A DNA stretch of 64,000 nucleotides from a virus (Duplodnaviria > Heunggongvirae > Uroviricota > Caudoviricetes). This document shows, piece after piece, positions 20,981 to 26,028 of the stretch; positions within the stretch are counted from its first letter, which is position 1; each line of letters opens with the position of its first letter. The DNA lies in IMG/VR virus record IMGVR_UViG_3300045016_000151, positions 18,078 to 82,077 of that record; one strand, 5' to 3'. The translations under genes were made by a program, and so were the position numbers. A model generated the notes under the pieces. It had not been told where the DNA came from and searched no databases. It was given only the letters and a program-made list of their open reading frames with translations.

Positions 20981-22122
20981 ACTTAAACGAAAAATTTTTA
21001 GAAGTTGAACGCGAGTTGAATGGGCTCTTCGTTGAACGAAATGATCCCATAAGAGGAATTATTTTAGCTACTTTAGCTAAAACAAATGTATTATTATTAG
21101 GCCCCGCAGGTGTGGCAAAATCTGCATTGATAAAACAGTGGAATTATAGAATTACAGGCGCAAAGTATTTTGAGCGGCTGCTAACTAAATTCTCTACTCC
21201 CGAAGAAATGTTTGGTCCACCATCATTTAAGGCCATCGAAGACGATAGATATATACGAGTGACGGATGGAAAATTAGGTGATCCAGAAATCAATACTGCT
21301 TTTATCGATGAAATTTTTAAGGCCAACAGTAGTATTTTGAATTCAATGTTGACAATTCTCAATGAGCGAATATTTTATAACGATATTACCCCTACCAAAT
21401 TAAATTTGTTTACCATCGCCGGTGCATCCAATGAAGTACCGGATTCAGATGATAACCTTGATGCGTTCTTCGATCGATTCTTACTGAAGTATCATGTGGA
21501 ATATATAAAAGAAGAAGGCAACTTTCTTAGAATGTTGGGTAGTGATTTAGATACCCCTCCAAAAAATACTGTTACCAAAGAAGACATCATAAAGGCACAA
21601 AGTGAAGTAAAGGAAATTTTATTTCCATCGGAAATGCAACAGCTATATGTTAAAATGCGAAAAACCTTATTTATGGAGTCTTTTCATGTTAGTGATCGTA
21701 CTTATAAACTTATTATAGGACTGCTAAAGGCGCAAGCATGGCTTAACGGTCGCAAAAAGATAGATACACCAGACTTTGAAGTACTAAAACACATTGTTTG
21801 GACTATACCTGATCAGAAGAAAAAAGCACAATCTTTAATACTCGATATTATTGCGCCTGAAAAGAAACGCATACTTGAAATCTTGGAAATGTGTCGGGAA
21901 ACATACTCGAAAGTATTTGCCAAGAAAGCTGGAAAAGAACGCCACAGTGAGGCTATGGAAGCAATCCATAAGCTAAAGGACGCAACAACCGAAGTTACCA
22001 CGTTAAAAAATATCATGGCACAAAGAGGTACCTCATTGGATGAAATAGCGACAGTGGAAAAAGAAATCGAAAGTTTCAAAAAACAACTTCTTGTAGATGA
22101 ACTAGGTGTCCTTAATTCATGA
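20977..22122 (+). CDS. MoxR-like AAA+ ATPase (AAA_5 family; Walker A LLLGPAGVAKS)
   Basis: P-loop motif and typical MoxR length. It lies immediately upstream of a vWA gene, which is the classic MoxR-vWA pairing. Confidence 0.8.
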   Translation: MNLNEKFLEVERELNGLFVERNDPIRGIILATLAKTNVLLLGPAGVAKSALIKQWNYRITGAKYFERLLTKFSTPEEMFGPPSFKAIEDDRYIRVTDGKLGDPEINTAFIDEIFKANSSILNSMLTILNERIFYNDITPTKLNLFTIAGASNEVPDSDDNLDAFFDRFLLKYHVEYIKEEGNFLRMLGSDLDTPPKNTVTKEDIIKAQSEVKEILFPSEMQQLYVKMRKTLFMESFHVSDRTYKLIIGLLKAQAWLNGRKKIDTPDFEVLKHIVWTIPDQKKKAQSLILDIIAPEKKRILEILEMCRETYSKVFAKKAGKERHSEAMEAIHKLKDATTEVTTLKNIMAQRGTSLDEIATVEKEIESFKKQLLVDELGVLNS

Positions 22123-23378
22123 TATCTTTAAATAAGAAAACACGTAATTTACTAGATAAGATACGTAAGGGTGATAAATACTCCATATCACATGATTCAT
22201 TCGATCTGGAAAAATTCAAGCACATAAAAGAACGAAGCAAAGAATTACTAGATACGGAAGAACTTGGGGTCAAAGACTACCCACAATTTCCAGAATTACT
22301 ACAAGATACATTTGATGCATTATATAAAAATGAACCTGAAATTGTAGACGAATGGCAAATGAAGCCCGACTTCATGCTCAACCGCGAAATAGCAAAGAAA
22401 TTGATGGAAAGCGCACGATATGAAGAATTACGTGTGATGACCAGGCTTGATGAGTTGTCAAGCGCACTGGGAACCGAAGTGATGTCACAACAACTCATGG
22501 AATGGCTAAAAGAGTTAAAGGAACAACGTGAAGCACTAAGCGCCTTACAACAGGCTGCCGCAGATCTAACTGATGCGGCACAGGAAGAAGGCGATGGCGA
22601 GGCCGAGACTGATACCGAAGCTGGCGGATCTGGCAACGTTAAAAGTAAAACGTCTGAAAAACTCACCCTCGAAGAGGCTATGAAAGCTTATGAGGAAGCA
22701 ATGAAAAAATTTCAGATGGCCATGGAAGATAGAAAATTCGAACAAGGTATTGAAAGAATCACTTCCAAAGTAAAAGATTCGGTGCGCGAAACATCGGAGA
22801 TAATCAGTAATTGGGGTCTCGAGCGTAGTGGAGCTTACTCGAAGAAACCTGTTAACCAGAAAATGGAATTACTAAATAAACTCAGATCCAGCGCAAAACT
22901 ACAGCAAATCGCAAGATTGGCCGGAAGATATCGTCGACTTGCTCTACAAACAAAACGCGAGAAAGTAAAACAAGGAATGGATGAACAACATTCTATTACT
23001 CAAGGAAAGGATCTAGGAAGATTGATTCCTGCAGAATGGATGAGACTTAAACATCCTTTGACAAAGAAAATGTTCAAGGCAGATTTTATTGAAGGTAAAA
23101 CCCTGATATATGAAATCCGCGGTAAAGAGAAAAAAGCTCGCGGGCCTATTATTGTTTGTATGGACGAAAGTGGCAGCATGTCAGGTCTTCCAGAGATCTG
23201 GGCAAAATCTGTAGCATTGGCGCTATTAGAGATAGCGCGAGAACAAAAAAGAGATTTTTATGTTATACATTTTTCATCTGGATACCGGATGGAAAAACTT
23301 CACACCAACGAATTCCTCAAAGATAACTTGTTTGATGTCGAACAAATGCTGGACATGGCGAGCTACTTTGAAAACGGT
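22119..23378 (+). CDS. vWA-domain protein, exon 1. Contains the MIDAS motif IIVCMDESGSMSG. Predicted 5' splice site lies after ...YFENG (GGT at 23376-23378)
   Basis: The contiguous ORF stops 40 aa after the MIDAS motif, which is too short for a complete vWA fold. The remainder of the domain is found downstream (see findings). Confidence 0.7.
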
Positions 23379-24623: not shown

Positions 24624-25827
24624 CCCAAAAATTGCTTTTAATCAAAACTTTTAGTATATTATTTATATGGGAAAGCATTGGACAGAACAAGAACTAAATA
24701 TACTAAAAGATCAATATAATTGTAAAACACCAAAAGAATTATCAAAAATACTTAATCGAACATACACGGCTATCCGAGATAAAGCCGAAAATCTAAAACT
24801 TCGAAGCTATAAAACATGGTCTGAAAAAGATATACAGATACTTAAAGAAAATTATGAGTATGGAAACTGGAATTTTTTGACCAAGGCTTTAAAGCGAAAA
24901 AAAGCTGCTATAACAGCATATGCTAGAAAATTTAAACTTGTAAAAAGAACTAGACCTAATATAGCATGGGCGGAAAAAGATCTGTGGTTTCTAAAAGAAA
25001 ATTATGCAATCATGCCGAATAGGGAATTATCTTTACAGTTAAATAAAAGCATTTCGGCATTAACTACAATCGCATATTCTTTAGATCTACACAAAAATAA
25101 TGGTCCGAAACGAAATCAAACTTACTGTTTGTGGTCGAAGAAAGATGTAACACTTTTAAAAAAGTGGTACAAAAGACTAGATGTAAAAAGTCTGGCAATT
25201 TTATTGAGACGAAGTACCGCAAGTATACATCATAAACTTCAAAAATACGGTATGAAGTTGTTATCATTGCCTCAGTATACATCTTCGTTGGAAGCGAACA
25301 TGAAGAAGATATTAAAAGAACTAAAAATTCCGTTCGAACATAACGTCAAAATTGATCGTTGGCAACTAGATTTTTTAATAGATAAAAAAATAATTTTGGA
25401 AATGCACGGATCGTATTGGCACGGAGATAATCGATTTTTCTCGGATAAAACTAATAAACAACTGTGCACAATAGAGAAGGATTTTAGAAAGAAAAAATAC
25501 TTTCTTTCAAAAGGATATAAGTATATAGTAGTTTGGGAATATGATTTTTATAACGATATTGAAAAGATTAAAACAGATTTAAGAGCCGTCTTGAATAGTA
25601 ATATTCAAGAGTACGATTCGGCAAAAACGGTAAATACCCTTTAGGGCAATACCGTGCTAAATATAGTAATAATATACTATCTCAGTGTAGAGACTACGAG
25701 GTGAACCTAATAAAAGAATATAATCCTCGCATGAGTGCCGAACATCTATTTTTTAGATGAAGATATAGTCCGAACTATGAAGCAATTCATAGAAACGAAG
25801 ATAAAGAGCTTCGTGGTAACATAATTG
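24624..25827 (+). mobile_element. Group I-like intron 2 carrying a homing endonuclease ORF. The 3' core has R-like AGACTA, a P7.1/7.2-like hairpin (CGAGG/CCTCG), P8 (CATCT/AGATG), a canonical S element (AAGATATAGTCC), P9 (CTATGAA-GCAA-TTCATAG) and P9.1
   Basis: The group I S consensus sequence is present verbatim, with a matching P7 partner. Features resemble the IA subgroup. Confidence 0.65.
24667..25644 (+). CDS. Intron-encoded Vsr-like homing endonuclease, paralogue of the one at 23406 (DFLIDKKIILEMHGSYWHGD); four N-terminal W-x-E-x-D/E-L-x-x-L-K-x-x-Y repeats
   Basis: Translation motifs read directly. Confidence 0.7.
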   Translation: MGKHWTEQELNILKDQYNCKTPKELSKILNRTYTAIRDKAENLKLRSYKTWSEKDIQILKENYEYGNWNFLTKALKRKKAAITAYARKFKLVKRTRPNIAWAEKDLWFLKENYAIMPNRELSLQLNKSISALTTIAYSLDLHKNNGPKRNQTYCLWSKKDVTLLKKWYKRLDVKSLAILLRRSTASIHHKLQKYGMKLLSLPQYTSSLEANMKKILKELKIPFEHNVKIDRWQLDFLIDKKIILEMHGSYWHGDNRFFSDKTNKQLCTIEKDFRKKKYFLSKGYKYIVVWEYDFYNDIEKIKTDLRAVLNSNIQEYDSAKTVNTL

Positions 25828-26028
25828 GAATCTGCCGTTTCTGGCCAATGGCTAGAAAACTTTAATACATGGAAAAAAGAAAATAAAGTAAATATATACA
25901 GTATTTTAATAGATACTGGGCCAAATACTCCTGTGGTTTTGAATTTATTCTCCGACAAAGTTGAGAAATTAAGCAGCATGAAACAGGATGCTGATGATCT
26001 AGCAATTTCGATCTTTAGTGACATATAA
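25828..26028 (+). CDS. vWA protein, exon 3 (ESAVSGQWLENF...VNIYSILIDTGPN...). Joining it to exon 2 gives ITDG-E
   Basis: An in-frame stop lies immediately upstream (25822-25824). The intron is predicted to end at G25827. The reading-frame phase matches exon 2. Confidence 0.55.
   Translation, partial: ESAVSGQWLENFNTWKKENKVNIYSILIDTGPNTPVVLNLFSDKVEKLSSMKQDADDLAISIFSDI

Follow-up and report, generated by a model that had tools for sequence, protein, structure and literature searches.

Two putative mobile group I introns, each with a Vsr-like homing endonuclease gene, in the MoxR-associated vWA gene of a large phage

The moxR-vWA locus

We analysed a 64,000-nucleotide (nt) stretch of phage DNA, referred to as the window (Caudoviricetes; IMG/VR record IMGVR_UViG_3300045016_000151, positions 18,078 to 82,077). 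The subject is a vWA gene, next to a gene for a MoxR-type ATPase, that appears to be split into three exons by two group I introns, each carrying an open reading frame (ORF) for a Vsr-like homing endonuclease. This organization had been proposed in an earlier note on the same DNA. The features of the locus, in window positions, are as follows.

20977-22122, + strand: MoxR-type AAA+ ATPase gene (Pfam bpMoxR, E = 3.5e-46, AAA_5 and AAA_lid_8; NCBIfam RavA-like)
22119-23378, + strand: vWA exon 1, residues 1-420, with the DESGS of the metal-ion-dependent adhesion site (MIDAS) at 349-353; ends in GGT
23379-24527, + strand: predicted group I intron 1, 1149 nt, within the GGT motif, between its Gly codons GGT and GGA
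23421-24350, + strand: homing endonuclease gene 1 (HEG1), 309 aa, four repeats and a C-terminal Vsr-like (EDxHD) nuclease
24528-24623, + strand: vWA exon 2, 32 residues, GTEF...ADIIFITDG; ends in GGT
24624-25827, + strand: predicted group I intron 2, 1204 nt, directly after the TDG codons (GATGGT/GAA)
24667-25644, + strand: homing endonuclease gene 2 (HEG2), 325 aa, architecture as HEG1
25828-26028, + strand: vWA exon 3, 66 residues plus stop, ESAV...IYSILIDTGPN

The 3′ end of moxR overlaps the vWA start codon by 4 nt, placing both genes in the same operon, and the two genes adjoin each other in all relatives. The pairing of the vWA protein with a MoxR ATPase, as the note had it, is borne out further by the cultured phages MTATph1 (Moorella) and 0305phi8-36 (Bacillus; gp63), in which more distant, uninterrupted vWA homologues also lie beside a MoxR ATPase gene. 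A megablast search of the vWA locus against GenBank phages gave no match.

The ORF at 22119-23396 consists of vWA exon 1 and the first 18 nt of intron 1, with a stop codon at 23394-23396. The unspliced frame of exon 2 likewise reaches a stop 18 nt into intron 2 (24639-24641). The note had the vWA ORF ending 40 residues past its MIDAS motif; exon 1 actually ends 67 residues past the DxSGS (D349-S353 to G420). The elements of the domain that are missing from this ORF lie downstream where the note had located them, in exons 2 and 3, in frames other than that of exon 1.

When the three exons are joined, a vWA protein of 518 aa results. The predicted junctions, YFENG/GTEF and ITDG/ESAV, match uninterrupted homologues exactly, and the alignment is gap-free at both junctions at the level of protein and of DNA. 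The closest uninterrupted homologues, from metagenomic phages, are 81% (P0001) and 80% (P0002) identical to the joined product over its full length. The intron-less alleles, which the note had proposed for comparison and which include L131 and L128, read through both sites, from GAGAACGGT directly into GGCACAGAATTC and from ACGGATGGT directly into GAATCAGCC. Pfam VWA_2 matches the joined product, and only the joined product, from end to end (model positions 1-107 of 107; residues 344-453, across both junctions). In contrast, truncated vWA alleles in the protein database are called as proteins of 350-445 aa with no Pfam domain; P0010 ends at TDG and P0011 at GG.

Exons 2 and 3 were also compared with intron-less alleles. 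Non-synonymous differences (pN) were 0.07-0.09 and synonymous differences (pS) 0.86-0.89, a pN/pS ratio of ∼0.1. This pattern of substitution marks both exons as coding sequence maintained under strong purifying selection.

Both insertions fall within invariant segments of the vWA domain, GGT and TDG, as expected from the preference of homing introns for conserved motifs that the note had invoked. The residues at the junctions, G420, G421 and T422 and T450, D451 and G452, are invariant across distant homologues. D349, S351, S353, T422 and D451 are likewise invariant in the homologue alignment and satisfy the MIDAS pattern DxSxS, T, D; T422 and D451 are presumably the Thr and Asp of its metal site.

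Intron presence and absence among relatives

Four related loci (L003, L005, L006 and L007) carry introns in the same gene. All four have an intron at a third site, GAGAT/(T/A)TGG, seven codons after the MIDAS DxSGS (site A): L003 at 7065-7986, L005 at 7071-7990, L006 at 7071-7991, and L007 at 7074-7378, where the intron is a 305-nt copy without an ORF. The proteins P0032, P0042 and P0077-P0080 are truncated at site A as well. A second intron (intron B) is found in L005 and L003. In L005 it is a 293-nt ORF-less copy (8169-8461) at GGT/GGA, the site of intron 1 of the window; in L003 (8171-9159) it follows GGTGGT, 3 nt downstream of GGT/GGA. Across this phage clade, each of the three MIDAS-coordinating segments of the vWA domain thus has introns within it or beside it.

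L005 and L006 provide the strongest check on the intron boundaries. The two are identical over exon 1 (1070 nt) and over 80 nt around the junction, and their site-A introns differ by a single 1-nt indel, which frameshifts the endonuclease of L006. L006 precisely lacks the 293-nt intron B: the 80-mer obtained by deleting L005:8169-8461 occurs exactly in L006. The boundaries of intron 1 of the window are fixed by the gap-free alignment to intron-less homologues.

Splice sites and P1

A U precedes both window introns, and both end in G (24527 and 25827); the same terminal G is found in all seven introns compared. At the 5′ splice site this U forms a U.G wobble with an internal guide sequence (IGS) in both window introns and in five relatives. 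The guide of intron 1, GCCGU, pairs with exon ACGGU in 5 contiguous bp from the splice site, and that of intron 2, GCCGUCU (25585-25591), pairs with exon AGAUGGU in 7 bp, including two G.U pairs. The guide sequences lie just 5′ of P2, within the endonuclease ORF, and the loop closed by P1 is 915-961 nt long with the ORF and 54-69 nt in the ORF-less copies. Guide and insertion site co-vary: the guide is GUC where the exon is GAU (MIDAS-proximal) and GCC where the exon is GGU (GGT and TDG sites). The site-A introns also have a 3-bp P10 with compensatory changes (UUG/CAA, AUG/CAU, AUG/CGU).

Ribozyme structure and covariation

The structured RNA of the two introns was assigned as follows.

24294-24527, + strand: ribozyme of intron 1 (IGS, P2 to P9.1, terminal G)
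24294-24298, + strand: intron 1 IGS, GCCGT
24300-24306 / 24311-24317, + strand: intron 1 P2, GTGA loop
24326-24332 / 24440-24446, + strand: intron 1 P3
24336-24341 / 24358-24363, + strand: intron 1 P4
+ strand: intron 1 P5, with the ORF stop codon within its loop
+ strand: intron 1 P7, A[C]GCGTA / TACGCT; P7.1, GATAG / CTATC; P9 with a GAAA loop
+ strand: further intron 1 helices P6/P6a, P8 and P9.1
25585-25827, + strand: ribozyme of intron 2 (IGS, P2 to P9.1 as in intron 1), with the S element AAGATATAGTCC at 25760-25771

The note had described an RNA core of about 170 nt following each endonuclease ORF. A conserved core is indeed present in both introns; however, it is about 235-245 nt long, and it does not follow the ORF but overlaps it by 57-60 nt. 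The S consensus that the note had read verbatim in copy 2, AAGATATAGTCC, occurs once in the window, against 0 expected.

The secondary structure was drawn on six vWA introns and comprises P2, P3, P4, P5, P6, P6a, a bulged P7, P7.1, P8, P9 and P9.1. Intron 2 was left out of this alignment because MAFFT misaligned its P6-P7 region. As a control, pairing partners were slid by 1-3 columns. In the six introns, 94.9% of pairs were standard, compared with ∼35% after sliding, and 35 of the 63 pairs had changes on both sides. The same structure on 101 distinct sequences of the family gave 92.3% of cells paired versus 32-45% for the slid controls, with compensatory changes in 59 of the 63 pairs, among them all seven of P3 and all six of P8. 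P7, which lies outside the model, was paired in 98.6% of cells on the same 101 sequences; four of its six pairs were compensatory, and its closing pair alternates between GC, AU and CG. Introns of subgroup IA (Michel-Westhof) have extra helices, P7.1 and P7.2, between P7 and the 3′ strand of P3. Here P7.1 is a single hairpin with a conserved 14-nt loop, TGAATAAATATAAT, and is 99% paired with compensatory changes in five of five pairs; no P7.2 was seen.

These data support the conserved core, P3-P4-P5-P6 and P7-P3′-P8-P7′, including the P3/P7 pseudoknot. The helices that the note had named, P7, P7.1, P9 with its GNRA loops and P9.1, are all confirmed by covariation. Minimum free energy folding by itself recovers P2, P4, P5, P7.1, P8, P9 and P9.1, with z-scores of -3.2 and -4.9 for the two introns.

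Rfam and covariance-model searches

At the gathering score, an Rfam search of the whole window returned tRNA only and no intron, and a search at E ≤ 10 over 23200-26200 also returned no intron. The general group I model, RF00028 (Intron_gpI; gathering score 50 bits), fails on the whole window and on the 3-kb region because an ORF of 0.9 kb lies between the 5′ splice site and the core. When the 3′ part of intron 2 is searched on its own, however, it matches RF00028 at 57.1 bits (E = 3e-14; 25590-25792, model positions 25-253), with P3, P4 and P5 falling within the terminal part of the endonuclease ORF.

We therefore also built a covariance model, R1, from the six-intron alignment, which includes intron 1; P7 was omitted as a pseudoknot. 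R1 finds exactly two matches in the window, introns 1 and 2. The score of intron 1, 258 bits, is high by construction since it is a training member. The note had made its reading depend on covariance-model support for a group I fold; on intron 2, on which R1 was not trained, the model scores 170.8 bits (E = 4e-56), over its full length and ending exactly at 25827. Together with the U.G pair, the terminal G, the pseudoknot, the covariation and the RF00028 score of intron 2, this identifies the introns as group I.

R1 gave 115 matches from 98 sources, and the P7.1 loop motif TGAATAAATATAAT-N5-CAAGAGTG was found in at least 119 IMG/VR viral contigs. Among GenBank phages, the ribozyme family is present in the crAss-like phages cr118_1, cr6_1, cr7_1 and cr131_1, in Staphylococcus 6ec-like phages, and in Clostridium and Aeromonas phages. 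RF00028 detects members of the family (IMG/VR loci L009-L110) only where the R/S consensus is preserved. Weaker R1 matches (25-73 bits) were seen at L003 12062-12253, L080 7850-8756, L071 7725-7906 and L032 5779-6624, which suggests additional, more diverged introns of the same family.

The intron endonucleases

That each gap carries a Vsr-like endonuclease ORF, as the note had it, is upheld by structure matches. HEG1 matches Vsr (1CW0, E = 1.6e-4; also 1VSR) and I-Bth0305I (3R3P, E = 4.6e-4), and HEG2 matches the I-Bth0305I nuclease domain (3R3P, E = 5.5e-8). HEG1 also exceeds the cut-off of Pfam DUF559, the PADLOC HEase and Vsr models match the endonuclease ORFs, and both match phrog_323 (‘transcriptional regulator, D5-like’) with E-values of 1e-31 and 3e-25. 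N-terminal to the nuclease, each protein has four helix-turn-helix-like repeats of the form W-x2-(E/D)-x3-L-x3-Y; these gave weak Pfam matches only (HTH_50 and GcrA, below cut-off).

The residues E, D and H-x-D define the EDxHD family (PMC3239194). By inspection, the E lies in YLENDL of HEG1 and SLEANM of HEG2, the D in RVDFLL and QLDFLI, respectively, and the H-x-D in YWHCD and YWHGD; the two proteins share all four catalytic residues. HEG1 lines up with Vsr at the E, at the D of the PDF motif and at the H of FWH, while its final D faces H. In the alignment of HEG2 with 3R3P only the E is aligned; the D faces N, the H faces A and the final D faces a gap. HEG1 and HEG2 are colinear and 31% identical over their full length (BLASTP E = 3e-41). 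They are old paralogues whose predicted target sites differ, and do not stem from a recent duplication.

Each endonuclease ORF starts in the P1 loop and extends to the P5 loop, where its stop codon lies. The last ∼20 codons, the 57-60 nt of overlap, also encode the guide, P2 and the 5′ strands of P3, P4 and P5. The AATACCG that the note had seen after each endonuclease stop (24356 and 25648) forms the 3′ strand of P4. The ORF of the site-A introns extends on through P6. ORFs for other types of endonuclease in the wider intron family also end within the core's first ∼100 nt, so a 5′ position with overlap seems to be characteristic of the family.

Layout for endonuclease expression

At each endonuclease ATG there is a conserved upstream sequence (23404-23423 and 24650-24669), in agreement with the note, and a promoter-like element whose function is predicted from its layout.

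23386-23420, + strand: promoter-like TTGCAT-17-TATATT, ending 6 nt before the HEG1 ATG
24632-24666, + strand: promoter-like TTGCTT-17-TATATT, ending 6 nt before the HEG2 ATG

Both endonuclease ORFs lack a Shine-Dalgarno sequence, while AGGAG is common before many genes of the window. The layout in which a promoter abuts the ATG occurs at four sites before ORFs of at least 100 aa, compared with none in 100 shuffles. Two of the window's ordinary genes have TTGATT-17-TATATT 5-6 nt before the ATG, also without a Shine-Dalgarno sequence (34650-34686 on the + strand, start codon at 34684, and 6516-6551 on the - strand, start codon at 6516). The recurrence of this arrangement suggests that the phage uses leaderless mRNAs for some genes.

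Since the ORF runs through the guide, P2, P3 and P4 into P5, translation would unfold the ribozyme. With no more than moderate confidence, we propose that the endonuclease has a transcript of its own, possibly leaderless and without the 5′ splice site; this would resolve the conflict between translation and folding.

Interpretation and alternative explanations

We conclude that two mobile group I introns, each with a Vsr-like homing endonuclease gene, interrupt the vWA gene of this large phage, and we put the probability of this reading at about 0.92; splicing itself we infer from the anatomy of the locus. After transcription of the moxR-vWA operon, each intron would fold into a group I ribozyme. 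P1 would form by pairing of the downstream guide GCCGU... with the 5-7 nt at the end of the upstream exon, the last of which is U. Free guanosine would then attack after that U, the terminal G of the intron would set the 3′ splice site, and ligation of the exons would give an mRNA for the 518-aa vWA protein with a complete MIDAS (DxSGS, GGT, TDG). The endonucleases would be expressed from their own transcripts, started at the sigma-70-like promoters, and would cut intron-less vWA alleles in mixed infections, where repair would copy the intron in (homing).

Some results weigh against this interpretation. At no threshold tried did RF00028 match the core of intron 1 or either ORF-less intron (L005:8169-8461, L007:7074-7378). 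P1 extends only 3 contiguous bp from the splice site in the site-A introns and in intron B of L005 and of L003, and P10 is evident solely in the site-A introns. A generic sigma-70 scan was not enriched in this AT-rich DNA (32 sites versus 25 ± 4 in shuffles); the proposal of an internal promoter and a leaderless message therefore rests on a layout common to just four genes.

One alternative is that the introns splice only with the help of a protein, either a phage or host maturase or chaperone or possibly the endonuclease itself. P1 must close across a loop of >900 nt, P1 and P10 are short in several family members, and many organellar group I introns need protein cofactors. On the other hand, the phage introns tested so far (T4 td, nrdB and sunY, Twort, SPO1) self-splice in vitro, and the GNRA loops on P2 and P9 together with the conserved P7.1 loop are typical of self-stabilized folds. 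We consider a strict need for such help unlikely.

It is much less probable still that the introns are dead relics whose ribozymes no longer splice, leaving a vWA pseudogene that yields a 425-aa truncated protein or none. The absence of an Rfam match for intron 1, the departure of its P7 from the R/S consensus and the decay of endonuclease genes in relatives would fit such a state. However, all core helices are intact in both introns with compensatory changes, the U.G pair and the terminal G are kept, and both endonuclease ORFs are full length with their catalytic residues. Exons 2 and 3 have no frameshift or stop, and the purifying selection on them speaks against a pseudogene.

Fractured genes with split inteins are where the Vsr-like family first came to notice (Dassa et al. 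2009, cited in PMC3239194), but the idea that free-standing endonuclease genes lie here between separately translated vWA pieces, assembled by split inteins or non-covalently with no RNA splicing, is hardly credible. Neither exon 2 nor exon 3 has its own start codon or ribosome binding site at the boundary (the TTG starts of the listed ORFs lie only 3 nt before the splice sites). A search of all frames found no intein or Hint domain, and the endonuclease ORFs are not in frame and have stops on either side. Between each ORF and the next exon lies a group I ribozyme that covaries and forms P1 with the upstream exon, and ORF-less copies of 293-305 nt occupy the same sites.

Under the two-intron interpretation, the domainless database proteins of 350-445 aa, from this phage and several relatives, are truncated annotations, and the true product is predicted to be the complete 518-aa MIDAS vWA protein. 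The ribozymes belong to an abundant phage group I intron family that is largely invisible to the general Rfam model. HEG1 and HEG2 add two diverged candidate endonucleases with defined natural target sites to the EDxHD family, which has one characterized member. The overlap of ORF and ribozyme, together with the ATG-abutting promoter, offers a testable case of how endonuclease expression is reconciled with splicing.

A broader idea is put forward tentatively, as one that may well prove wrong. The family may have a distinct expression design, with the ORF in the P1 loop, C-terminal codons that double as ribozyme, a promoter abutting the ATG and a leaderless mRNA. A single RNA could then serve endonuclease translation or ribozyme folding, but not both, the two being divided between two classes of transcript, and introns would have separately colonized codons at or near all three MIDAS segments.

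Other features of the window

Downstream of the vWA gene lies a retron-type reverse transcriptase gene (26947-27963; PADLOC RT_XIII, 239 bits; NCBIfam retron_St85_RT, 216 bits, cut-off 235). Upstream of it is a GC-rich island (26290-26475), with up to 69% GC in a genome of ∼33% GC. A conserved hairpin, TATTGCG-nnnn-CGCAATA, precedes the island, which opens with a 13-bp inverted repeat (26280-92 / 26349-61). The same layout of island and reverse transcriptase, with unrelated repeat sequences, occurs in L128 (∼4760-7151), L131 (∼4765-6554) and L003 (∼9650-9950). Over 26250-27963 there was no Rfam match to the island, and its fold z-score was only -0.6. The island and the reverse transcriptase may constitute a phage-borne retron with its non-coding RNA.

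Further features of the window are listed below.

2361-2434: tRNA-Ala(UGC)
3691-5481, + strand: Ro60/TROVE protein with a Ro60-type vWA domain (Pfam E = 2e-54 and 5e-38)
13602-19682, - strand: single ORF of 2026 aa combining RNA polymerase beta (Rpb2) and beta′ (Rpb1) Pfam domains; by synteny upstream of moxR in all relatives
30770-33250, + strand: 826-aa protein with major-vault-protein shoulder and Vault_3 repeat domains (E = 9e-27), unusual in a phage
43746-58556, - strand: ORF of 4936 aa

Comparison with known systems

The closest characterized system is the recA group I intron of Bacillus phage 0305phi8-36, which encodes I-Bth0305I of the EDxHD family (Taylor et al. 2011, PMC3239194). Both are phage group I introns in a conserved motif of a core gene, and their endonucleases share a C-terminal Vsr-like nuclease, although they are only distantly related (∼34% identity over the nuclease domain). 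The repeats of the window endonucleases may correspond to the N-terminal helix-turn-helix/NUMOD region of I-Bth0305I. The host genes differ, being recA in 0305phi8-36 and vWA in the window phage; 0305phi8-36 also has the MoxR and vWA gene pair, but there it is uninterrupted. The window endonucleases have four repeats compared with two in I-Bth0305I. In both systems the ORF starts near the 5′ end of the intron, 42-43 nt from it in the window and 88 nt in 0305phi8-36. The I-Bth0305I ORF has been placed in P5 (PMC3239194), whereas the window ORFs begin in the P1 loop and end in the P5 loop. The similarity between the ribozymes is only weak (R1, 18 bits, E = 1e-4).

Acinetobacter phage vB_AbaM_ME3 (KU935715) has an unannotated intron of the R1 family (L133:3313-3622; 91.5 bits, E = 2e-29). 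It lies between ME3_88, annotated as ‘DNA mismatch endonuclease’, and ME3_87, annotated as ‘RecA’, directly after a Vsr-like ORF. ME3_88 is 28% identical to HEG2 over 81% of its length and is really a Vsr-like homing endonuclease. The host gene in this cultured phage, recA, differs from that of the window and is probably split.

Self-splicing group I introns in phage genes are well known from Twort orf142 and from T4 td, nrdB and sunY, including cases of several introns. The ORFs of the T4 introns sit in P6 or P9 loops. In contrast, those of the window overlap the guide and P2 to P5. The window locus resembles Twort and T4, the intron-rich crAss-like phages (Yutin 2021, PMC7886860) and the Jug phages with their high intron density (PMC12880540) in having several group I introns with endonuclease genes in conserved phage genes, and in the closing of the upstream frame by a stop soon after the 5′ splice site. 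In the literature searched we found no previous description of introns within a vWA gene associated with MoxR. The element is a known kind of mobile element in a new host gene, and not a new class.

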